Under the pieces are notes generated by a model. It saw nothing but the letters and a program-made list of their open reading frames with translations. It was not told the origin of the DNA and did no database searches. From IMG/VR virus record IMGVR_UViG_2974693523_000001, positions 102,803 through 148,180 of that record: a stretch of DNA of 45,378 nucleotides. One strand, 5' to 3'. The DNA comes from a virus. Lineage: Duplodnaviria > Heunggongvirae > Uroviricota > Caudoviricetes > Ackermannviridae. The position numbers were made by a program, and so were the translations under genes. Numbering within the stretch: the first letter of the stretch is position 1; the number at the start of each line of letters is the position of its first letter. This document shows positions 4,826 through 37,800 of this stretch, in pieces.

Positions 4826-5482
4826 TTAATTCTCCGTTAACCAAATAGCTAAATTACAAACAGAACTTTCATCTTCCAATAGTTCATACCACATTGAACC
4901 CATATAACCCTGCATACCTAATAGCATCACCTGTTTCGGATCTTCATTAGATAAATCAAAGGCAGTATGTGAGGCGGGAATTACAATCTTGTTGCATACT
5001 GGTTTCACACTTTTAAATACTTCATATGAGTCATCAAAAATTGCGTCAAACCTAACATAGTTTTTATCCGCAGTATCAATGAAACCAGAAAACACCCCTT
5101 CAAAATGTTTTTCAAGGTATCTCTTTTTACTTTGTATGTGCTCAGGCATACATTTAGAAACAACAATATGCTCTACCGGTCGTCCTGTTAAATTAGTTAT
5201 GTAATCACCTAATCTAATAATCAACGAGCGCTGTTCGTTGTCAAAGGGTTTCATATCATCATATAGGTTTGGTTGTTTCCAAAAATCAATTGAACTACAA
5301 CCTATAAGATTATCAAAATAGGGGACAAGATCATCCCCTAAACCAACAACCTCTTCAAACTGTACCCAATCAACTGGCTTTAAGCGTTTATTAACCCAAT
5401 CAATCCATTCAGTAAGCCCATCATTTAACGTATAGTCAAAATCCCATGCAATAATAAAAGGTTTTTTCATGATATTTACCAT
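4826..5482 (-). CDS. HAD-family 5'(3')-deoxyribonucleotidase
   Basis: HAD motif I WDFDYTL, FWKQPNLYDDMKP, K..YL motif and terminal IFDDS. Confidence 0.8.
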   Translation of the reverse strand: MVNIMKKPFIIAWDFDYTLNDGLTEWIDWVNKRLKPVDWVQFEEVVGLGDDLVPYFDNLIGCSSIDFWKQPNLYDDMKPFDNEQRSLIIRLGDYITNLTGRPVEHIVVSKCMPEHIQSKKRYLEKHFEGVFSGFIDTADKNYVRFDAIFDDSYEVFKSVKPVCNKIVIPASHTAFDLSNEDPKQVMLLGMQGYMGSMWYELLEDESSVCNLAIWLTEN

Positions 5483-8400
5483 AGTTTTGTAGCTGTAGTT
5501 TTTACAGGTGTTTTAAGTCTTTTTGCTTTGTCTAGTGAATTACGCCCACTTAGACGTTTTGCTGATGGATCAACATCACCGCTCTTAGTAAAAGAATGTC
5601 TTGTGTCATGGGACCATCCTATCTTTTCAAGTATAAGTGACAAAGGTTTAATGAAAATTTTATGTAACATAGCATCTTTATCAACGTACTTATTTACATC
5701 CCATTCAGGGGGTAATTCACCACTAAACGCAAATGAATTAACACCAAAAGGATTATTATCCTTTAAACTAACGAGAAGGATTTTATCACCTGATGCAATA
5801 GGTTTTACACCTGGGATTGGATGTGCTTCTAGTTGTTTATTGTGTGCGTATGCTGCGCGAACGTGCGCTGGTGTTCGTGGGTGTGACCATCCTCTTGGAT
5901 CTGATGCATCATACCATTTATCCATGTTTTTTATACCCTTAGCCGCTGCCATTACCTCAATTGGTAGTTGCTTCCACTCCTCTCTGACTTTCTTAATATA
6001 TTCTTTTACCTCAGATTCACTACCCAACAAACAAATCTTATAAACCTTTTTCATATGGTTTCGCGACCATTCAGGGTAATCAGATTTTTTCGCAGCCACA
6101 CCAGTTATTTTTATGTAAGGTTCTTCGAAATATGTACCTTCACTATCCTTAACTGCCATAACATACATTTTTGGAGCTTGCCAAATTGCTGATATGGCTA
6201 TTACTTCACGCTCCCAGAACATACGTTGCTCATAACCATTGACTGTTATACAAAGATCTTCAGCAAATTTAGCTATTCTAGGTTCAATTTCCTTTTTAGT
6301 AAATTGGTCTAGGAATTTCACAACGCCTGTAATATCAGACTCATCCAAATTATGTTTTTTAACTACTGCATCTAATGTCACATAGTTAGAGTCAGTATCC
6401 CCTGCAGGTATGTAATCTTGACCGTTAGTACCTAAGTAACTATTAAGATATTGATTTAGATAATGCATATTCCATTTATTAATTAAGCGTCCGGAAGCAC
6501 AAATACCTTCACCAATATCGACATCAAAGTAATCCTTAAACCAGATTGTTGTCATTGCTCCATAGAAAGCATTCATAAGGATTTTCATACCCTGCTGAAA
6601 GCTGTCTTGTTCTGATTCACAATCAGCTAATTCATGAAGTAAATTTTCAAGAGCTTCTTTTTCAAGTTGTTTTAATTGAGTATAGAATTCATCATCCCAT
6701 GCTCTATGACTTGTATGTTGCTCAGTTGGTACAAAGGGTGCGTTTATATATTCTTCAACCCATACACCACGCTGTTCAAAATGCTGCATACGCTTCTTAA
6801 AGACTTTACGCTCACCATATATCATACGTGTTACTTCTGATGGTGCTGAAATAGTATCACGTTTGAAGAAGTGAAGGTTTGGTGTCATTGCTACGTTATA
6901 GTCACGTAATGTTTGTAACTCAATTTTACCAACATTGATCAATTCATCAACAATGTCAGTACTTCTTGCAGCAACAGACTCCATTAATTTACGTAACGCT
7001 GACTTACGCTTGAGATCAAACTCAGCAAGCATAAGAACACGTATTTCTTCTTCCAAATCAAAAAGAATATCAAAACGCTCTTGTTCGCTAACCTTTGTTT
7101 CAATACCAAGGTTGTATTGTTGCATAATATGTGGGTATAGTGAGTTTAAGTCAATGGATATTAACCACTTATAGAACCCAGCTATAACAGCTTTAACATA
7201 ACCACCGTCAAATTCTTTACGCTCTTTAGATACTCTACGAATAAGTGGTCTTACCCCTTTTTCTAAAAGGAACCAACCCATTAGTGCATTCCAAGGTTGA
7301 ACAGTACCCAAGGCATCTTCAAAATTACACTTTGCCTTGTATGCAATAGCGTAGGTCAACTGCATATATTTCAATTTGTCATTGATACGATCAACTAATC
7401 GAATATCCTTTTTACCGTAATCTACGTATTTGGTCCAATTAGTAAAATAAAGCATTGTTAGAGTGCGCGCTTCTGCATAATCCAGCTTTCTTTCACCAGT
7501 CTCAACATAACCTATATGATCAAGGGAATATGACTCTCTCGTCGTTCTACAGTGTTTTTTGTATAGGTCAATATAATCAATCATATCAGTGCCTTGGAAT
7601 CTATACTTGATCCTCTTTACACCATTAGCATTCTTATATTTGACCTGTTTTACATCCTTCCAAGGGCTTAAATAAGCTGCGTTTTCTTCACCTAATATTT
7701 TACGAATACGTTCATAAAGATATGGGTTATCAAACGTCTCTATGTTCCATCCTGTCCAAACATCAAAACCCTGTTTAAACCAATATTGGATAAAATGAGT
7801 TAATAACTCTTGTTCGGTGTTGAACTCATAATAAAATGATTTGTATCCACCTTCGTAGGTACCTGATTCTTTATAGATGCCTCTTGCGTTAGGCTCAGGT
7901 AAACCCCATACGAACATAAACTTTTCACCAGTTATATTATCGTATGTTGAAATCTGAATTAGTGTAATTGGGAATGCAGCGTTTAAATCCCATATTGAAG
8001 GAATAACAGTTCCTGGGAAATCACGTTTTAGCCATTCATGGCTTTTTTCAACTGCTTGGATGTATTTTAGTTTAGCTAAGTTACTGTCTACTTGTTCTTC
8101 TTCATCTTCATCGTCATTATCATCAGTGTTAATAACGCTAAATGTATCTTCATAGATTATAGGTTGTGGAAATGGACCATTATGTATTTCTCCATTCTCA
8201 TCCCTATAACCAGACACAACCTCAATATCCACGTTAGCTAATTTTAGGTGGCGCCAATTAAATTCTAAATGCCCTTTGAAATTTTTAGCAATAAACTGGT
8301 TACAAAAATCATCCTGTCCATAGATCTTCACATCACTAACGTCTTTATTAGTTTCAAGAAAATCCCTCATTTCCCAAAAGTTTTTGAACTTTATTTTTTT

Positions 8401-8592
8401 AAGTGGTTCTAAATGCAACCCTTTAAATTCTGATGGTTCACCACTAAAGCGTTTATCACTTGCTAGTGCATACAACTCAGGCTCATACTTTTTGTCAACC
8501 ATGCGACGGTTGCCGTATTTATCCATTATTCTTAAACGAACATTGGTGCCTTTCTGGTAGAAGTTTGTATATACTACAGACATATCTATCAC
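5476..8592 (-). CDS. gp43: Family B DNA polymerase (T4 gp43-like) with insertions
   Basis: ExoI VDIEV, ExoII GWNIETFDNPY, ExoIII Y...D; polymerase motifs DLNSLYP, KILMNAFYG and GDTDS. Confidence 0.97.
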   Translation of the reverse strand: MIDMSVVYTNFYQKGTNVRLRIMDKYGNRRMVDKKYEPELYALASDKRFSGEPSEFKGLHLEPLKKIKFKNFWEMRDFLETNKDVSDVKIYGQDDFCNQFIAKNFKGHLEFNWRHLKLANVDIEVVSGYRDENGEIHNGPFPQPIIYEDTFSVINTDDNDDEDEEEQVDSNLAKLKYIQAVEKSHEWLKRDFPGTVIPSIWDLNAAFPITLIQISTYDNITGEKFMFVWGLPEPNARGIYKESGTYEGGYKSFYYEFNTEQELLTHFIQYWFKQGFDVWTGWNIETFDNPYLYERIRKILGEENAAYLSPWKDVKQVKYKNANGVKRIKYRFQGTDMIDYIDLYKKHCRTTRESYSLDHIGYVETGERKLDYAEARTLTMLYFTNWTKYVDYGKKDIRLVDRINDKLKYMQLTYAIAYKAKCNFEDALGTVQPWNALMGWFLLEKGVRPLIRRVSKERKEFDGGYVKAVIAGFYKWLISIDLNSLYPHIMQQYNLGIETKVSEQERFDILFDLEEEIRVLMLAEFDLKRKSALRKLMESVAARSTDIVDELINVGKIELQTLRDYNVAMTPNLHFFKRDTISAPSEVTRMIYGERKVFKKRMQHFEQRGVWVEEYINAPFVPTEQHTSHRAWDDEFYTQLKQLEKEALENLLHELADCESEQDSFQQGMKILMNAFYGAMTTIWFKDYFDVDIGEGICASGRLINKWNMHYLNQYLNSYLGTNGQDYIPAGDTDSNYVTLDAVVKKHNLDESDITGVVKFLDQFTKKEIEPRIAKFAEDLCITVNGYEQRMFWEREVIAISAIWQAPKMYVMAVKDSEGTYFEEPYIKITGVAAKKSDYPEWSRNHMKKVYKICLLGSESEVKEYIKKVREEWKQLPIEVMAAAKGIKNMDKWYDASDPRGWSHPRTPAHVRAAYAHNKQLEAHPIPGVKPIASGDKILLVSLKDNNPFGVNSFAFSGELPPEWDVNKYVDKDAMLHKIFIKPLSLILEKIGWSHDTRHSFTKSGDVDPSAKRLSGRNSLDKAKRLKTPVKTTATKLW

Positions 8593-8601
8593 CTTAAAAA
8601 T

Positions 8602-8631
8602 AAATCAGGCGTTTATTATAACGCCTGATTT
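8602..8631. terminator. Terminator-like hairpin between the sigma gene and gp43, with TATAAT (minus strand) across the loop
   Basis: Perfect 12-bp inverted repeat aaatcaggcgtt-tattat-aacgcctgattt. Confidence 0.7.
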
Positions 8632-8641
8632 GCTGTTTGAA

Positions 8642-10699
8642 TTATTTCTTTTTGCCTACCCTTGGTTTATCTATTTTGCCTTGATCAACCAATTTATTAT
8701 ATTTTGCTGTTATTTGTTGTACATAGCTGACATATAATCCAGCTAATGCTGCAATTCGTGGTGGTGATACACCTTCTAAACGTAAGGCAACAATAGCCTC
8801 ATGGAATGGTAACATAAACTGACCATCACACTTATTTCTACTTAGATTAGACAAATTGTGAATTAACTCAGGGTTTTTAGATGCAAAGTCTTTAGCATCA
8901 AGTTCAGCAGCTTTTGAAACTTTAGCAAATTGAAGATCCAATTTATTATGAGTTTCTTCAGTAACAACCATATATTTGTAACCCTGTGGAGTGTTAAATG
9001 GTTGCGTATGATCTCGCGTTGGTACAAAGGTTTCTGCACCCTTATAAAGTCTCCAACGCTTCATATATCTACACGCTGTATCCTGTCTAACACCTAATTC
9101 AGCCATAGCTTCCTGTTGTGTTTTACCCTCAACTAGAAGTAATTTAAGTAACTGTTTTGTTACTTTTGGGTGAATAGCTTTATGGTTATGAGTTGGGTTA
9201 GCGTCAACAACGTCATCAATTTCTTGAGTAAGTTGCTTTTTAAACTCAGGCCACTTTTTATCAGACCTAATATGTCTAAAATGGCGCTCAGTAATACTTT
9301 TTGATGCATGAGCAGGCGGAACTAAAAATGTTGGTGTTACCAATAGCTCTTTAATTGTTTCAACCTTTGTTTCAACCTTTGTTTCAACAATATATGATTC
9401 TTCAAGATTTTTTGGTTCGCTTTTTGTAGACAAACCAATTCCCATATTGATCTCTTCGTTTGATTGGTTTATGTCTTCTGAAGACTTTTTTGTTTTTTGA
9501 ATCTTTTTTGGTAAAGAAACAACTTGTTCAGTATGCTGGATGCACTCAATACGACATGCGAATTCATTATCTTCAAAAGATTCATCAAAAAATACTTCTG
9601 GATTAGTAAGTCTAAATCTTGGCTTATTTTCACTAGTCAAAACAAATTTCATTTGGTTTTCACCCAATACTTGGATTTGACGAATCCTTTCTCTGGTTAA
9701 ACCTAATGTTTGACCAACATGATCTAATGTTTCACCTAGAATAATACGTCTGCGAATAACTTGACGATAAACATCTTTTTTAATGGCAGCTACAGCATAA
9801 GATAAATTCTTTTGTGATGATGTTAATTCGGCAATATGATCAGGAACCTCAATTGCATCATATGTATAGAAATCAATTAATGAATCCTCTTTACCATTAT
9901 CATCATCGGATTTCATTGTTGCATCTAATGAAACATCACCAAGATTTGAACCGTAAGCACAATCATTATAAATTTCGGTAACTTTATCAATATGTCTTTG
10001 CTTATGTTTTTTACTTAGTTTTTCCCAAGAATAAAGACCTGTTTTTTCATCACGAAAATATTCTTTATCTGGTAGTTCTTTTGGTTTATTACCATTCACA
10101 AAACCATAGTTTTGGTAAAAGAAAATTGCTATTTTCTCATATTTGTTTTTGATATTGTTTAGTGTTGTGCCTTCATCCCTACAAATTTGATTTACCGCTC
10201 TATTAATACGAGAAATAGATAATTGCAAATGCGTGGGAATACGCACAGTATTACGCATTGTGTCATCAAAACCGCGACTCATACACTGATAAATCCAACT
10301 AACAGCATAAGTTGAAAATCTCCAAGGTTGGGTCGTGTCAAAACCCATAACAGCGCGGTCCAAACCAAAAACAGCTTCTTGCATTAAATCTTCTAAAACG
10401 CCTGAGTCACCGTATAGAAGATTACGCTGTTTGGCAAATTTTGTTACTTCTTTAACTGCTAGAAGCAAATTGCGCTCAATCATTTCCTGCTTTGCTTTTA
10501 CATCACCCTGTTGGGCTTTTTTGATCAGTTCAAGAGCTTCTTCATAATCGGGGAAACCTTTAGAATTTTTAGGTAAAAATTTTGCAAAAACGCTTGAAGG
10601 GTCTCTTGAAAGAAGACTTTCACGCATTGTTGAGGCAAGACTTTTATCCTCTTTTTCATCGTTCTGTACGTTATCAACTTCATCAATATCATCAAACAT
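8642..10699 (-). CDS. RpoD/RpoS-like sigma-70 factor with a ~330-aa C-terminal extension containing HTH-like motifs
   Basis: Region 2 DLMQEAVFGLDRAV..F...RFSTYAVSWIYQCMSR...RIPTHL and region 4 TLDHVGQTLGLTRERIRQIQ. Confidence 0.9.
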   Translation of the reverse strand: MFDDIDEVDNVQNDEKEDKSLASTMRESLLSRDPSSVFAKFLPKNSKGFPDYEEALELIKKAQQGDVKAKQEMIERNLLLAVKEVTKFAKQRNLLYGDSGVLEDLMQEAVFGLDRAVMGFDTTQPWRFSTYAVSWIYQCMSRGFDDTMRNTVRIPTHLQLSISRINRAVNQICRDEGTTLNNIKNKYEKIAIFFYQNYGFVNGNKPKELPDKEYFRDEKTGLYSWEKLSKKHKQRHIDKVTEIYNDCAYGSNLGDVSLDATMKSDDDNGKEDSLIDFYTYDAIEVPDHIAELTSSQKNLSYAVAAIKKDVYRQVIRRRIILGETLDHVGQTLGLTRERIRQIQVLGENQMKFVLTSENKPRFRLTNPEVFFDESFEDNEFACRIECIQHTEQVVSLPKKIQKTKKSSEDINQSNEEINMGIGLSTKSEPKNLEESYIVETKVETKVETIKELLVTPTFLVPPAHASKSITERHFRHIRSDKKWPEFKKQLTQEIDDVVDANPTHNHKAIHPKVTKQLLKLLLVEGKTQQEAMAELGVRQDTACRYMKRWRLYKGAETFVPTRDHTQPFNTPQGYKYMVVTEETHNKLDLQFAKVSKAAELDAKDFASKNPELIHNLSNLSRNKCDGQFMLPFHEAIVALRLEGVSPPRIAALAGLYVSYVQQITAKYNKLVDQGKIDKPRVGKKK

Positions 10700-10760
10700 T
10701 TTTGTATACCCAAAATAATTAATTTAATAACAACATAATATCACACATTACAATTAGCGA

Positions 10761-10784
10761 AAAAGGAGCTTTTAAGCTCCTTTT
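10761..10784 (-). terminator. Intrinsic terminator after HU
   Basis: Inverted repeat aaaaggagctt-tt-aagctcctttt. Confidence 0.8.
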
Positions 10785-10814: not shown

Positions 10815-11084
10815 TTAGAAAACTTTTTTTAGACCACCAAGAGATTTAGCTTTTGCCACTTTGTGCGCGGGTTTTACAGCTTTTTCACCAGTGCGTGGGT
10901 TGCGAACTTCACGACTTGGTTTGTCAACAACTGTGAATCGAACAAGATCTTCAAACGCTACTTCGTCACCAGATTGCAGTGTTTCTACAATTGTGTTACG
11001 TGTTGCTTCAAGAATTGCGCGTACTTGGGTTTGATTTGCGCCAGACGCTTCCGCGATCTTTTTAACAAAATCAGCTTTGTTCAT
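10815..11084 (-). CDS. hup: HU/IHF-family histone-like DNA-binding protein
   Basis: MNKADFVKKIAE...GDEV.F..L..F.V..KPSREVRNPRTGE, the canonical HU signature. Confidence 0.95.
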   Translation of the reverse strand: MNKADFVKKIAEASGANQTQVRAILEATRNTIVETLQSGDEVAFEDLVRFTVVDKPSREVRNPRTGEKAVKPAHKVAKAKSLGGLKKVF

Positions 11085-11098
11085 TTTGATTGTCCTTA

Positions 11099-11293
11099 TT
11101 AATAGAAGACATGGTGTTTGTTCATTGCTGCCATAACAGCATTATCATGGCTTGCAACGCGGGTGGTTCGTGACAGAACGTCAAGAATCTTTTTTGTGCC
11201 TGAAAAAGATGAGTCAAAATTTTTCATAGCATTACGATTGACTTTTTTACCAGCTTTTTCACCGGCTTTGCGTTTTGCATTTGAAATAGGCAT
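11099..11293 (-). CDS. Small basic hypothetical protein (64 aa)
   Basis: Start MPISNAKRK follows an AAAGGA SD. Lys/Arg rich. Confidence 0.65.
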   Translation of the reverse strand: MPISNAKRKAGEKAGKKVNRNAMKNFDSSFSGTKKILDVLSRTTRVASHDNAVMAAMNKHHVFY

Positions 11294-11369
11294 ACAATTT
11301 CCTTTTAACAACAATTGAAAAAACACTTTAGAGAGCTTTACACTAACACAAAAAATTTAATGAAAAAAC

Positions 11370-12008
11370 TTATTTTATATCCATGTGACGGATCACAAGA
11401 TAATCAATAGGATGCTGCATGTAATGAGTGGATGGGATTTTTGAGAAATCGTTCATTGTTTGTTTAATGTTCAATTCCTTAGCCCAGCGAAGGAAGCCAC
11501 TACGATAAACACATAAACAGGCGGGGAAATGTTCTATTGAAATTTCATCCCCGTCTTTTGGTGGTATGTAATAAAGATTGAAAACTGTAGCGTTGTTAGC
11601 TTTTGAACCATTACCCAAAACAATACCAACCCTATTTTGAAGAATGGTATTATTATGAATTTTTGGTGTAAAGTATGGTCTAAAAGCTTCTGATATTTGA
11701 TCACTAGGTTTATCAAACATTATGTTGAAAGATAAGTGATTATTATTTTGAATATCCCATTTGAGAAGTTCAATAGCGTGTTCTGTTACTGGGATGATAG
11801 TGATCTTCTGATTTGAACCACCCTTTAGAAATGTTGATGCAGCTTTGGTCAACATATCCTCAGCAAGATCATAACGTTTCATTTTTAGAGCATGTTTGAA
11901 AAGTGTGGAATCAATAACATTTTCCAAAAGAGGTTCAACAATACGTAAATATGAACCTTTAATTGAATTAGGTTTTATTGACAAATAATTTTGATGTTCA
12001 TTTGGCAT
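11370..12008 (-). CDS. Hypothetical protein
   Basis: 212-aa ORF with no recognisable motif. Confidence 0.7.
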   Translation of the reverse strand: MPNEHQNYLSIKPNSIKGSYLRIVEPLLENVIDSTLFKHALKMKRYDLAEDMLTKAASTFLKGGSNQKITIIPVTEHAIELLKWDIQNNNHLSFNIMFDKPSDQISEAFRPYFTPKIHNNTILQNRVGIVLGNGSKANNATVFNLYYIPPKDGDEISIEHFPACLCVYRSGFLRWAKELNIKQTMNDFSKIPSTHYMQHPIDYLVIRHMDIK

Positions 12009-15527: not shown

Positions 15528-15553
15528 TATTTAGTCACCATATTAGCTAAATA
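15528..15553. promoter_or_regulatory. Back-to-back late promoters CTAAATA (minus 15528-15534 for gp3; plus 15547-15553 for the lipoprotein)
   Basis: Same motif and ~27-30 nt spacing to the ATG as at nine other late genes. Confidence 0.65.
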
Positions 15554-17758: not shown

Positions 17759-17802
17759 TTGTATTATTTTCAAAATCAATTTATATTGTTCATTAACTAA
17801 GG
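17759..17802 (+). promoter_or_regulatory. Sigma70-type promoter
   Basis: TTGTAT-17 bp-TATATT, followed by TTAACTAAGG. Confidence 0.55.
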
Positions 17803-17823
17803 CAAACAACAAAGGAAAGCCAA

Positions 17824-18294
17824 ATGCAACCAAATAGCACCAACTGCAAATTCACCATGACTTACGAAGGATCTAAGAAATTCAGCTTGGGTGACAAACT
17901 ATCTGAAGTTTCTGAATACTTCCGTTCAGCTCAAGAACACGGTTTAAATTTCAGCCTGTTTGTTGATTACAAACACAACGCCACAGGCACTGAAATGGAA
18001 ATCTCAATCCCTAACGGTTGCAGTCCCATTGACACGGTAACTCAAGCCATCAACCGCTTCTTCCTTTACAAAGGTAAGATGTCAGGGAAGGAATGTCTTT
18101 TCGGAAATGGCTGTAGCTTCCGTGTGGTACATGGTAACAAACAAGTATTCTCAATCTCTATACCCAAAACGCATAAGATTGAAGATATTGTACTTGATAT
18201 TGCCCGCGCGGGTACCCTAGGGGTTCTAGTGATAGATTGCGATCCGGTACACACAGATGAAATACCACCAAAAATATTCCGTATTGTACTTTAG
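17824..18294 (+). CDS. Hypothetical protein
   Basis: 156-aa ORF with an AAGGA SD. Confidence 0.75.
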   Translation: MQPNSTNCKFTMTYEGSKKFSLGDKLSEVSEYFRSAQEHGLNFSLFVDYKHNATGTEMEISIPNGCSPIDTVTQAINRFFLYKGKMSGKECLFGNGCSFRVVHGNKQVFSISIPKTHKIEDIVLDIARAGTLGVLVIDCDPVHTDEIPPKIFRIVL

Positions 18295-18309: not shown

Positions 18310-18352
18310 TTGTAAAAGTCTCTTTTTCATTTTAATATGGCGTTAACTAAGG
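18310..18352 (+). promoter_or_regulatory. Sigma70-type promoter overlapping a terminator-like hairpin
   Basis: TTGTAA-17 bp-TAATAT, followed by TTAACTAAGG. Confidence 0.55.
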
Positions 18353-18676: not shown

Positions 18677-20491
18677 ATGTGTAATGAACTTCGCGAACGC
18701 GCTAAAGAGATGTTCTCATTCGGTGAGCGCCCAAAGCTTAAGAAAACCACATTGACAACTCATACGGATGTCGTGGAGTACGTCAGCGGGGCGTTTAGCA
18801 ACCGCATAGGGCTAGACATGACACTTAGTCAAGCTTTGCTCGCATTCGCAAAAGGCTACGATCACCCACCAAAATGTAAGAACCCGTTGTGTTCTTGTCA
18901 AACGCCTTGGAAGCAAGGGGTATTTCAAGATACGTGTAGTCGCTCATGTGCCAATAGTGTTGACTCAGGAAAGTTTGGTGAGTATGTAGTATGCACTAAA
19001 AGCTTCCCACTAAAGAGAGGTCGTACGGATGCTCTTACTTGCGGTGATACTTGTCGTACATTCTACAAGAACCATAGACTATCACAAGAAGCCGTAGAAC
19101 AAGCCAAGAAGGATTTCTCAGAAATGGGTCTAGTGGCTTGGGCTAATAAACACCTATGTCGGCAGTCATGCACTGGTGGGTTCGGCTACAATGATATCCG
19201 TTTTGAAGATTATCGTTGGGCTAAGATTAATGACCTAGTAGAAGAAGTTAATGCGGTAATTGAAGCTATAACAAACCACAACAAGAATATCCCTGTTGAA
19301 TTAAATACCAAAAATAAGTGGAAATCTTGGCAATTGGGATCTTCTTACACTGTATGTACCCAATGTGGTTCAGAAGGTAAATTTCATGAGGGTAGGGGTT
19401 GGCAAGAATTTTGTAGTCATGAATGTCAACGAAAAGCAATCACAACACAAGGTAGTGAACTAAGAAATAAAATTTTAGAAAAACATTCACAAATTGATAA
19501 CGAAAAAAGACTACAAAAATTTGAGCAAACCATGATGGAGCGTTATGGATATAAGCATAATCTTGGACACAGACCAATCATAAATCAAATAATGATAAAC
19601 AAAAGGATTAATAACCCTATTTGGGGTAGAAGTCGTTTAGAGATTAGGTTAGTTGATGAACTAAGGACTATGGGCATCCAAGTAGTAACAAATGATAGAA
19701 CTATAATAAACAAAGAATTAGACATATACTTACCAGAATTTAAAATTGCTATTGAAGTCAACGGTGTTATCTACCATTCAGAGAAATTCAGTAACAACGC
19801 AAAACATAGACATATTGAAAAAACTGTTTTGTGTAATGAAAAAGGTATACACCTTATCCACATATGGCATGATGAACTAAACTCCGAATATAGATACAAC
19901 AAAACAATAAAAAGACTCAAGTGGTTGTTGAATAAAAATGATAATAAGAAAACATACGCAAGAAATCTTTTACCTTGTTCTTATATTGACAAAACAAAAG
20001 ATGAACAAATAGAAATTTTTCTTAAAAATAATCATGCACAAGGTCATTCTAAAAATTACACAAAGGCATACACATTAGAATCTGTAGAAGGTATTATTAA
20101 GGCTGTTATGTTGTTTAAGATTAGTGATAACAACACTTATGAATTATCACGTTTCTATGCCGATTGTGTCGTTGGTGCATTCAGTAGACTACTAAAACAA
20201 TTTATAAAAGATCACCCAAACACAAACATTATTTCATTTGGTGATAGGGATAAAGTTAATCCCTTTAGTAATGTGTATTTATCAAATGGATTCAAGTTGA
20301 AAAACACAATTGGACCTGATTATAAGTACACAAATGGTTCTGGTAGAATACACAAATTCAATTTTAGAAAACAACGTTTATTAAAGAAATTTCCTGAATT
20401 AGATCCTAATCTAACAGAATTTGAAATGGCTACAAAATTGGGTTATTATAGAGTATGGAATACAGGTTTATTTGTATATGAATTTAGTTAA
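18677..20491 (+). CDS. Hef/Vsr-like PD-(D/E)XK endonuclease with N-terminal Cys-rich modules and a C-terminal GNAT-like domain
   Basis: S..E..L...L, ELDIYLPEFKIAIEVNG..YH and IHIWHDE motifs; free-standing and antisense to gp23. Confidence 0.75.
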   Translation: MCNELRERAKEMFSFGERPKLKKTTLTTHTDVVEYVSGAFSNRIGLDMTLSQALLAFAKGYDHPPKCKNPLCSCQTPWKQGVFQDTCSRSCANSVDSGKFGEYVVCTKSFPLKRGRTDALTCGDTCRTFYKNHRLSQEAVEQAKKDFSEMGLVAWANKHLCRQSCTGGFGYNDIRFEDYRWAKINDLVEEVNAVIEAITNHNKNIPVELNTKNKWKSWQLGSSYTVCTQCGSEGKFHEGRGWQEFCSHECQRKAITTQGSELRNKILEKHSQIDNEKRLQKFEQTMMERYGYKHNLGHRPIINQIMINKRINNPIWGRSRLEIRLVDELRTMGIQVVTNDRTIINKELDIYLPEFKIAIEVNGVIYHSEKFSNNAKHRHIEKTVLCNEKGIHLIHIWHDELNSEYRYNKTIKRLKWLLNKNDNKKTYARNLLPCSYIDKTKDEQIEIFLKNNHAQGHSKNYTKAYTLESVEGIIKAVMLFKISDNNTYELSRFYADCVVGAFSRLLKQFIKDHPNTNIISFGDRDKVNPFSNVYLSNGFKLKNTIGPDYKYTNGSGRIHKFNFRKQRLLKKFPELDPNLTEFEMATKLGYYRVWNTGLFVYEFS

Positions 20492-34891: not shown

Positions 34892-37800
34892 GCGAACGCC
34901 ACCCCTCTTATGTCTCTTACGATTGGTGATGAAACCCGTGAACCAAAGAAATCAAACTTTATCCTTATAGAACTAAATGTTTGATTGGCTTGGATAAGCT
35001 CGTATTCAAATTTGTACTCAACAAACTTAGAAGCATCGTTGAAAATTGAAGTTGAAGCGTTTATTTCTTGCCAATCAGAACCCTCAGTATCCAAATTCTG
35101 GACATAAGCTTTAAAGCTTGAAGTTCCTGGGAGCAGAACGTTGAGATAGAACTGCATCTTTGTACAAGGGTTACTGAAATTCAGCGGTTTACTTACATAG
35201 CTGAATCGTCCTTTAGATGGATCGGTGTCTATGTAATAACTGTTAAGAACAGTAGTAAATCCATGAAGATCAATCTGCGGCGCGATGTTATCAGTGGTTG
35301 TGAAGTTAGCCCTGATTTCAAAGTCCGTGGTCTCGATGTATTTACCCTCAAAACCCAGATTAGTATCCGTTTTTGGTGTTAGCGGCATCCATGGTGATAA
35401 ACCTGTATCTGTCATGAATCTCATTTCATAACTCAAACTTATTGAGTCATTAAGAAGCATATTCAGATTTGTAAATAATAGGTTAAATGGATAACAAGTT
35501 TCAACCAATATTGGTGTATCTGATGGTTGATACAAAGTACCAGTTTCTGTTAGAGGCAAATTAGTTGAAATTTCATAGCGATCATGATCTATGACATTAA
35601 CAATCTCGCGCTCACCGTTAATTTGGGTTGATGGTAAACCTAAACCACCTACACAGTTACTGATTTTAACTGTTTGGCCTGCGCGCATACCATGACCTTC
35701 TTGATAAATGGTCAATTTACTCTGGTTTAATACACCTGATATTGGGTTTTCACCTAGTGGTATAGCATCAATTCTATTTTTTGGTCTGAATACAATCTGA
35801 CCAGAACCAACACCCCATTTACAACGATAAGTTGTAAATTTTAAATCGCGGTTTTGGTGTGGTGTCCAAGAAGAACCGTTTGCAGAAGTGAACATAACAC
35901 CAGTGTTAGGTTGCTTCGCTACTGCATAACCTGTACCAAGAATCTTCTGACCAAGCTCGGCATAACCAACCTCATAGTCTTGTGTGTTTGCTAGTATAAC
36001 AATACAATATTCTTGATCCTGTTCTATGTACACTGGGTGGGGGAAAGTAAATCTAGTTGGTACATTACAATCAACAGATGTGTTTACTTCTTCAGGATTT
36101 AGAACTTTACGTCCTATAACTTCATGCGTTGGTAGACCGTTCTCCATACCCCTCAACTCAAGCACAACAGGAATATTTCTTGATTTACTGAAGAAGAAAA
36201 CTTCAACAGCACTCATGAATTCCCCACCTTGTGTGGTACAGGCAAAAGATTGCGCAACAGGGTCAAAACGACGATATTCGTTTTGAGATCTTTGTGTAAA
36301 GCCTAGTATCCTTGTATTTGTGATTGTTAATTGACGAGTATCTTCACGACCACCAGACTCAAAGTTTGCTGTCGCATAAGTAAACGTATCATCACGCGGT
36401 GGTTTTGGGTCTTTAGGATTGTCAATAAGAACAAAAGCTGTACGTCCAGTAGAGAAGCGTAAGTTTGAGTTATTGGGTACCGTAAAAACACCAGTGATAG
36501 AACCGTTTGCATCAGTAACTAAAGGTTCACCCTTACTTTTACCCGTTTGGTTAACATACGCCGAAACGTTCACACCATTGAAGAATGGGTAGACGCGAGT
36601 CGTTGGGCGTAGAGAGTTAGCCCTGAATGTGATGTTAATAGAGCGCATGAACGGGATAACTCGGGTTTGAATTAGGTTATCACGAACTGATTGTGTGTTA
36701 GTTTCTGTAAAGACAGTGGTTGTTACTGTACGAACCTGTTCATTGCGCCAGCCAGTCCAAGACCAGTTAGAATGCATTACACCTTGACTAGCAGCCCCAC
36801 GATAGTTAATAGTTTCATTAATTACGCGAGGTGCAACATACTTAACATCAACCCAGAAATCTTGACTAGGACTCAGTGTAACGAAACCATTCCAAGAAAA
36901 AACAGCGTATGGGTTAACGTTAATAACACCGGTAGCAAAAGGTTGCTCAATAGATTTCACTTGTGTGTAGGCAGGTGAAACCATATCATCATTAACTACA
37001 CCACCACTAAACATTTCAAAATCTAAAGAGTTTTGGATTAGTCTAGGGTGCATTTGACCTTCACCACTAGCTTCAATACTCATACTTGAAGATTCAACGT
37101 CTACAAGTCTAAAGTCTGTAAGAGGGTCAGCAAAAATACCATTTTTGAAACGGTTTTGTCCAGTTACTGGATCAACAGCTTGAATATTTGTTGTGTCAGC
37201 CTCTAATGTTGACAAAGAGGTATAATATTCAAGATTTGAAATACGATTTTCTAACCTTGAGATATCTTTCATTGTATAACGTTTGTTGTTCTCTGGTAAT
37301 ACCCATATTTCATCAACGTCCGGTGTATAAGCTGGAACAACAATGTCAAATAAACGCATAGAGTTTTGAGGAATAACAGGACGCTGAGGTTGGTTTGAGC
37401 TGATACCCTTAATAACCTGATACCCATTTTCGTAAGATACGATAATCGTGTCTATACGTGGTAGATAGAACTCAATATCAGCGATCATTGATGTGTCAGG
37501 GTAAATGAAATTACCACCCGCTAGGAAGCTGCTAGTGATAGTTGGCCTGAAGTCAACAACATCACGCAAGTTATACTCAACACCATTAGAAAGTGTGTAA
37601 CGTAGGCGGCGTTCTCTTGGAATAGAACTATAAGAATCAGCACCAAAATAATCACCAGATCCATGCGAAAAATAAGTGTAAGTTACCACCAAACTTCTTG
37701 GTGATGTTACTGGTGAATTTGATGTAAGTGTTGCTAGACCATAATGGGTATCTGTTTGTCCACCATTGAACGTATATTCACTGGTAACATCTTGACCGTT

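Follow-up and report, generated by a model that had tools for sequence, protein, structure and literature searches.

The window analysed here is a stretch of 45,378 nucleotides that forms the last 45 kb of the 148,180-bp virus record IMGVR_UViG_2974693523_000001, which is rated complete and belongs to a T4-related, Ackermannviridae-like marine phage; unless another sequence is named, positions are those of the window. On its minus strand, positions 8642 to 10699 hold a single unbroken open reading frame (ORF) of 685 amino acids (aa), whose product (P0001) joins a sigma-70-type factor to a C-terminal module with two predicted helix-turn-helix (HTH) units.

The domain layout was derived from an alignment of the six sequences of the family, together with a model of the C-terminal domain (CTD; mean predicted local distance difference test score, pLDDT, 82) and a full-length model (pLDDT 66.5), the sequence of the Vibrio phage VPALA having been left out of the alignments used for the structure models. 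In place of region 1.1, the protein starts with a short acidic N terminus (aa 1 to 39, positions 10583 to 10699) that has a net charge of -7 and is predicted to be disordered. There follow the sigma-2 domain with regions 1.2, 2.1 to 2.4, and 3.0 (aa 40 to 178, positions 10166 to 10582), a region-3-like segment for which Pfam has no match and which holds a family-specific insertion of about 40 residues (aa 179 to 255, positions 9935 to 10165), an acidic linker of the region 3.2 type, predicted to be disordered (aa 256 to 299, positions 9803 to 9934), and the HTH domain of region 4, or sigma-4 (aa 300 to 355, positions 9635 to 9802). Downstream of region 4, a conserved acidic and aromatic motif, NPEVFFDESFEDNEFAC, appears as a small structured element (aa 356 to 387, positions 9539 to 9634), and it is followed by a variable tether of about 65 residues (aa 388 to 455, positions 9335 to 9538), disordered over aa 388 to 452 in the full-length model. 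The C-terminal module consists of CTD-A (aa 456 to 556, positions 9032 to 9334), with five helices, the first HTH unit (HTH1, aa 511 to 553, nucleotides 9041 to 9169), and an R-W-R-x-Y-x-G motif (RWR.Y.G) that is invariant in the family alignment; a connector (aa 557 to 589) that is poorly ordered and contains a conserved PF.P.G motif; and the helical CTD-B (aa 590 to 685, positions 8645 to 8932), with the second unit (HTH2, aa 631 to 672, nucleotides 8684 to 8809). All these elements lie on the minus strand, and each of the two sub-domains is basic, with a net charge of +7.

In the N-terminal half, region 2 was recognized by Pfam at aa 84 to 142 (Sigma70_r2, PF04542; 33.1 bits against a cut-off of 24) and region 4 at aa 312 to 344 (Sigma70_r4, PF04545) with 23.6 bits, slightly below the cut-off of 24.1, which the relatives of the window protein clearly exceed (35.9 to 63.2 bits); the Sigma70_r3 and region 1 domains gave no Pfam match in the window protein. 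Among the PHROGs matches, phrog_351 (RNA polymerase sigma factor) covers aa 40 to 384 (E value, 2.9e-35), and phrog_234, which represents the T4 gp55-type late sigma factors, is not present. The generic sigma-70 superfamily model of NCBIfam (TIGR02937) is matched at 63.2 bits, above its cut-off of 42.9, and dozens of RpoS, RpoD, and SigA models also match, all far under their equivalog cut-offs (108 bits against 378.7 for RpoS, TIGR02394, and 95.7 against 354 for RpoD_Cterm). Furthermore, solved chains of SigA, RpoS, and RpoD align with aa ~5 to 177 (regions 1.2 to 3.0) and aa ~258 to 350 (region 4). In this alignment, the recognition helix of region 4.2, TRERIRQI, is identical to that of primary sigma factors, and SW takes the place of the WW dyad in region 2.3. 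The roughly 40 additional residues between region 3.0 and the region 3.2 linker were found by the alignments and the full-length model to be conserved across the family.

An initial annotation of the locus had recognized regions 1.2, 2, 3.2, and 4, the TRERIRQI helix, the change in the WW dyad, and an insertion in region 3; Pfam, phrog_351, and the solved chains confirm the regions, and the alignment to these chains confirms the three sequence features. Its description of a full RpoD-like factor was an overstatement, considering the scores far below the RpoD and RpoS equivalog cut-offs and the N terminus that replaces region 1.1. The window protein is a divergent member of the sigma-70 family, neither of the gp55 type nor of the extracytoplasmic function (ECF) type.

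Conservation of the fused architecture

The fusion is a real single polypeptide, conserved but very rare. The initial annotation had placed the sigma factor and about 330 extra residues on one chain and had proposed a search for homologues of the same fusion; the C-terminal part with the two HTH folds amounts to roughly 300 residues. Besides the single ORF of the window, the full architecture is shared by the isolate VPALA (35% identity at 100% coverage) and by four proteins from metagenomes (P0004, P0124, P0126, and P0128). When 1.84 billion representatives were searched exhaustively by HMMER with aa 400 to 685, only six matches were returned: four proteins of 615 to 681 aa that carry sigma regions 2 and 4 ahead of the module, and two unrelated HTH-repeat proteins; a stand-alone form of the module was not found among these representatives. 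No further copy was detected with the CTD profile elsewhere in this genome or in VPALA, and neither a word-based search with the CTD profile nor scans of IMG/VR and of JGI metagenomes added members to the family. Since no stand-alone form emerged from these searches, the module appears to work only as part of the sigma factor.

The same evidence bears on the possibility that an error of sequencing or assembly merged two neighbouring genes, an explanation that found no support and is effectively refuted. The metagenomic members derive from different runs, and the same continuous ORF is present in the VPALA isolate as well as in contigs of four or more further sequencing runs. In the comparison with a 97% relative, the only difference in length (685 against 681 aa) is an in-frame unit of 12 nucleotides within a VETK tandem repeat of the tether (aa 430 to 441, positions 9377 to 9412, minus strand), and the substitutions in the CTD are mostly synonymous. 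It follows from the occurrence of the ORF in independent assemblies, together with this pattern of substitutions and the exclusively in-frame indel, that the fusion cannot be put down to the assembly.

Purifying selection is evident along both folded parts of the chain. In particular, against the 97% relative the sigma part has a ratio of nonsynonymous to synonymous changes (pN/pS) of 0.07 and the CTD one of 0.11, compared to 0.50 for the motif and tether between them. Across the six family members, whose overall identity is 25 to 39%, the residues equivalent to the core-binding QE pair and to the set for -10 recognition and melting (FSTYA..W..Q...R), as well as TRERIRQI, are invariant, while the first tryptophan of the WW dyad is either serine or histidine.

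This pattern also speaks to the decoy raised in the initial annotation, taken here as a protein that would sequester the host core RNA polymerase or displace sigma-70 without productive initiation. The replacement of tryptophan by serine or histidine in region 2.3 and the expanded region 3 could indeed impair the formation of the open complex. However, an H-W pair at the position of the dyad is also present in functional sigma factors of the RpoH type, and the other residues for melting and recognition, as well as the -35 helix, are invariant over deep divergence, with the low pN/pS of the sigma part. Because such conservation is not expected if core binding alone mattered, the decoy is disfavoured and, in our estimation, very improbable; the invariant residues for core binding and -10 melting, under strong purifying selection, point instead to a functional initiation factor.

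In a tree of sigma cores, all the phage proteins lie on long branches outside the clade of bacterial primary sigma factors. The window protein, its 97% relative, VPALA, and P0124 form a cluster (support, 97/93), and the tree gives no resolution among the rest.

Fold of the C-terminal module

The CTD model comprises two helical sub-domains, and the two HTH segments quoted in the initial annotation map onto predicted HTH units (aa 528 to 535 with 539 to 553, and aa 646 to 653 with 657 to 672), a correspondence that agrees with profile matches and structural superposition. The helices of HTH1 are placed at aa 511 to 523, 528 to 535, and 539 to 553, and Pfam assigns aa 516 to 554 to HTH_23 (PF13384; 29.3 bits against a cut-off of 24.6). 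For HTH2, matches to HTH_28 and HTH_23 were obtained at the equivalent position of the relatives P0124 and P0126, those to HTH_28 (PF13518) reaching 26.3 and 26.5 bits against a cut-off of 25. With an exhaustive aligner, HTH1 superposes on region 4 of the phiEco32 sigma factor (Z, 4.8), and HTH2 superposes on the HTH domains of LuxR/GerE, sigma region 4, KorA/KorB, resolvase, and small terminase with Z values of 5 to 6 and a root-mean-square deviation of ~2 to 3 Å across ~51 residues. Two HTH folds in the C-terminal part are thus supported; the middling Z values indicate the common HTH arrangement and not one specific family.

As a whole, the module gave no Foldseek match in the PDB at an E value of 0.001 or below, and its superposition on bipartite double-HTH proteins is poor (template modelling score, about 0.2 to 0.3). 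The nearest shapes to CTD-A in the ESM Atlas are stand-alone sigma-4 proteins, in weak and generic matches, and those in the AlphaFold database (AFDB), also weak, are consistently bipartite HTH proteins, namely, the N termini of IS630/Tc1 transposases, paired domains, and TrfB. An origin of the CTD by internal duplication of the protein's own regions 3 and 4 was considered and rejected (hhalign probability, 0.1%).

It is possible to hypothesize that the arm binds DNA, for which the charge of +7 on each sub-domain offers indirect support. Alternatively, the arm could be a protein-binding or regulatory module that occupies the beta flap, captures a host anti-sigma factor or activator, or folds back on the sigma core; in one version, the acidic motif of aa 356 to 387 might mask the HTH domains and gate their activity. 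An arm of this kind would resemble the C-terminal extensions of ECF41 and ECF42. The closest shapes to CTD-A are region 4 domains, known both as protein-interaction modules and as DNA binders; the conserved acidic and aromatic motif stands directly before the tether and close to two basic domains; and no DNA target motif was found in the promoter searches. On the other hand, HTH1 is placed by Pfam in HTH_23/HTH_28, typical of the DNA-binding N termini of transposases and terminases, both sub-domains are net basic, the module does not resemble region 4 of the same protein in sequence, and a long disordered tether is better suited to reaching along DNA than to switching within the molecule. We therefore regard a protein-binding arm as unlikely, but as the foremost of the alternatives.

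The segment NPEVFFDESFED resembles the acidic and hydrophobic clamp-binding tails of T4-type proteins. A clamp-binding role for it was dropped, as the gp55-like protein and the polymerase of the phage end in basic tails that lack the motif.

Gene neighbourhood and promoter classes

The sigma gene is situated between a gene for an HU/IHF-like DNA-binding protein, directly upstream (positions 10815 to 11084, minus strand), and the gene of a family B DNA polymerase (polB), directly downstream, which is a single ORF of 1038 aa (positions 5476 to 8592, minus strand). The order HU-like gene, sigma, polB is kept in VPALA and in every metagenomic relative. The surrounding genes are of the T4 replication and recombination type, with a UvsW-like helicase, a UvsY-like mediator, an exonuclease, a UvsX-like recombinase, a deoxynucleoside monophosphate (dNMP) kinase, and the family B polymerase, but the nearest classified relatives with the same gene order are aquatic Ackermannviridae (Campanilevirus YC and GR28A, and Tedavirus phiA8-29). 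Thus, the label of T4-like phage given in the initial annotation holds for the replication and recombination core and not for the affiliation suggested by gene order.

This setting lends itself to a further explanation, in which the double HTH would be a largely independent operator repressor or architectural protein, fused to the sigma factor only for co-expression or local concentration, and would serve, for instance, to shut off early or host promoters or to mark replication origins beside the polymerase gene. The location of the gene inside the replication cluster in every relative, the resemblance of the double-HTH layout to TrfB/KorA repressors and to the site-binding domains of transposases, and the length and poor conservation of the tether are all in its favour. 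An independent module would be at odds with the lack of any stand-alone copy among the representatives searched, in this genome, and in VPALA, and we consider this explanation quite improbable.

Upstream of the sigma start codon, a terminator-like hairpin (10761 to 10784) is followed by TGA-TATTAT (10735 to 10743), about 35 nucleotides before the start (the two spanning 10735 to 10784, minus strand). From its sequence, this TGnTATTAT element would be a promoter of the extended -10 type, which fits transcription by the host enzyme early in infection. Downstream of the sigma stop codon and ahead of the polB start, a perfect 12-bp hairpin with TATAAT in the loop precedes a T-run (8602 to 8631, minus strand).

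On the opposite side of the HU-like gene, positions 11099 to 12008 (minus strand) encode a 212-aa protein (phrog_3788) and a small basic peptide (64 to 75 aa), both conserved in two close relatives (L015 and L016), and these may be partners of the HU-like protein and the sigma factor in one cassette. The polymerase gene itself is interrupted in L016 (3473 to 7287), where an 829-aa polymerase ORF, an 86-aa ORF, and a 344-aa ORF with an intein-splicing match follow one another, and in VPALA (L001:10998-15586), two coding sequences annotated as DNA polymerase stand around a 1.1-kb ORF. Just downstream of polB, the thymidine-hypermodification genes HMUD2, ADDT, and HMUDK_hel were noticed in two relatives that have the fused sigma factor, L003 (7470 to 10568) and L016 (8259 to 11414). 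In the genome of the window, Pfam and tblastn with the L016 proteins detected no HMUD2, ADDT, or HMUDK gene, only tblastn being informative for ADDT, so that close relatives may differ in DNA modification. A rationale based on hypermodified DNA, modelled on SPO1 with the HU-like TF1 and the sigma factors that this phage encodes, was rejected since none of these modification genes was detected in the genome of the window.

With regard to other transcription factors, the complete genome contains one sigma-70-type gene and, separately, a gp55-type late sigma gene (phrog_234; E value, 1.7e-25; G000:C1 14912-15544) that adjoins a gp47-like gene. Neither AsiA (PF09010) nor MotA_activ (PF09114) was matched in the complete genome at an E value of 1 or below, and both families are absent from the Pfam matches of the window protein; the absence of AsiA and MotA from the genome therefore leaves room for a different pre-late mechanism.

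The hexamer most enriched 5' of genes is CTAAAT (4.8-fold), and CTAAATA occurs 30 to 36 nucleotides before 13 start codons, within the window near 15534 (minus strand), 15547 (plus strand), and 16928 (minus strand). CTAAATA is likely, judging from its position and frequency, to be the late promoter read by the gp55-type sigma factor and to belong to the class that consists of a -10 element only. The T4 motif TATAAATA is not used as a late promoter in this genome. The two claims of the initial annotation that the fused protein is not the late sigma factor and that late genes use a gp55-type, -10-only motif agree with the separate gp55-type gene and with the CTAAATA elements upstream of the 13 start codons. 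Genome-wide, TATAAT is depleted (57 and 58 occurrences per strand against 153 expected), as is TATAAATA (4 and 3 per strand against 15 expected), which suggests selection against spurious promoter-like words.

A second type of element, present in eight copies, consists of a terminator hairpin with a -35-like TTGyaA loop and, past the T-run, a -10-like TAnTAT 17 nucleotides on; one of these hairpin-embedded promoter modules is in the window at about 18310 to 18338 (plus strand), and an extra copy with TATAGT as its -10 element lies 5' of G000:C1 71744-71986. Seven genes share a conserved leader, GGCAAACACTAAAGGAAAGCCAAAATG, in a set that overlaps the hairpin modules and is represented in the window at about 17795 to 17826 (plus strand). 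The hairpin-embedded class was not seen in 65 kb of VPALA. Directly 5' of several hairpin promoters, direct repeats of TTCAAAA stand ~12 bp apart (G000:C1 about 19045-19073, 34997-35025, and upstream of 71744); speculatively, they might serve as an UP-like element or as a site for the tandem HTH arm.

Proposed role and related systems

Taken together, these data lead us to propose, with a probability of roughly one half, that the protein is a working phage sigma factor of the pre-late phase, which carries a tethered double-HTH arm for binding upstream DNA and acts before the gp55-dependent late phase. Early in infection, the host holoenzyme would probably transcribe the gene from the extended -10-type promoter that precedes it in the replication cluster. 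The product would bind the host core RNA polymerase through the conserved sigma-2 and sigma-4 domains and direct pre-late ("middle") transcription, the late genes being left to the separate gp55-type factor. In the holoenzyme, the C terminus of a sigma factor adjoins the -35 element, which positions the arm for contact with DNA upstream of the promoter; the tether of ~65 residues could allow the two basic HTH domains, of the sigma-4/LuxR type, to reach tens of base pairs in that direction. In this position, the arm may act as a covalent activator or anchor that adds specificity or affinity for phage promoters, and it would functionally replace the AsiA/MotA system. The built-in activator or middle switch imagined in the initial annotation is therefore plausible topologically. 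A more specific version, in which the arm reads a second DNA element, placed 5' of promoters that are otherwise sigma-70-like, giving rise to tripartite phage promoters and a middle switch of a T4-related lineage that never had AsiA/MotA or replaced them, is no more than tentative.

Several observations weigh against a pre-late sigma factor with a DNA-binding arm. The promoter searches of the genome and of VPALA tied no promoter class to the fused sigma factor: generic TTGnnA-N17-TAnTrT promoters are not enriched (20 against 17.3 in shuffles), nor is a -35 class with GTTTAC (7 against 9.9), and the hairpin-embedded modules have two equally possible readers, host sigma-70 and the phage sigma factor, whose -35 recognition helix is identical. 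As regards the arm, the HTH superpositions reach only middling scores, the recognition helix of HTH2 is not markedly basic, and the structure models of this tiny family were built on 5 to 18 sequences. HTH folds also serve protein contacts, as in sigma region 4, which binds the beta flap and anti-sigma factors. Finally, related Ackermannviridae have sigma factors with different or shorter extensions, which implies that the arm is not essential for sigma function.

Phage-encoded sigma factors are well known, but our literature searches yielded no description of a sigma-70-type factor with added domains of the DNA-binding type after region 4. The protein represents a concrete candidate for the control of pre-late transcription in T4-related phages without MotA/AsiA, and its architecture may let the phage redirect the host RNA polymerase without these helpers of T4. 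The candidate is testable, since one carrier, Vibrio phage VPALA, is in culture on Vibrio anguillarum. If the arm reads DNA, it would constitute a new, one-chain extension of promoter specificity and provide a compact module for controlling transcription in synthetic systems. An arm that binds proteins would instead represent a sigma regulator of a new, built-in type.

Among known proteins, the remoter sigma homologues and the gene order are those of the aquatic Ackermannviridae YC, GR28A, phiA8-29, and Vibrio phage K469 (PMC11721090). As in the window, their sigma genes stand after an HU/IHF-like gene and before polB, and the proteins have an equally divergent core outside the primary-sigma clade and are all longer than a minimal sigma factor (433 to 598 aa). 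However, different from the window protein, their extensions are shorter (in proteins of 433 to 452 aa) or unrelated. The extension of K469 (598 aa) was examined as a CTD homologue and discarded, with an hhalign probability of 8% and no match of the CTD profile in the K469 genome.

ECF41 and ECF42 are likewise sigma-70-family proteins with an activity-modulating extra domain after region 4, a modulation that is only proposed for the window protein. They are group 4 factors lacking regions 1.2 and 3, whereas the window protein has regions 1.2 and 3.0/3.2 and its extension gives HTH matches only; the extensions of ECF41 and ECF42 are SnoaL-like or tetratricopeptide repeat (TPR) regulatory domains and not tethered HTHs. 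The module alone, with two three-helix HTH units joined by a linker, recalls the N termini of IS630/Tc1 transposases and the paired domain (HTH_23/HTH_28/HTH_29), but it has no transposase or other catalytic part, and the similarity in sequence is confined to the HTH cores.

In phiEco32, the sigma factor gp36 works with the helper factor gp79 (PMC12276001; PDB 9m7y). Both systems would combine a phage sigma factor with an accessory function to take over the core polymerase, and region 4 of gp36 is the domain matched by CTD-A with a Z of 4.8. However, phiEco32 has a small ECF-like sigma factor and a separate protein, different from the group-1/2-like sigma factor with in-chain accessory domains described here, and there is no sequence relationship between them.

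In the sigma appropriation of T4, AsiA remodels host sigma-70 and MotA bridges it to DNA (PMC2988021). The likeness consists in a phage related to T4, with a late sigma factor of the gp55 type, and in an extra element at the C terminus of a sigma-70-type factor, proposed to read upstream DNA in the pre-late phase. Different from T4, the sigma factor is encoded by the phage, the putative DNA-binding part is covalently attached, and the AsiA and MotA families are absent. Furthermore, the arm is built of HTH domains, while the DNA-binding domain of MotA is not an HTH, and no promoter class resembling the MotA box was found in the genome. As proposed, the fused protein works most like the sigma-70/AsiA/MotA system of T4 and the gp36/gp79 pair of phiEco32, and it is a member of neither.

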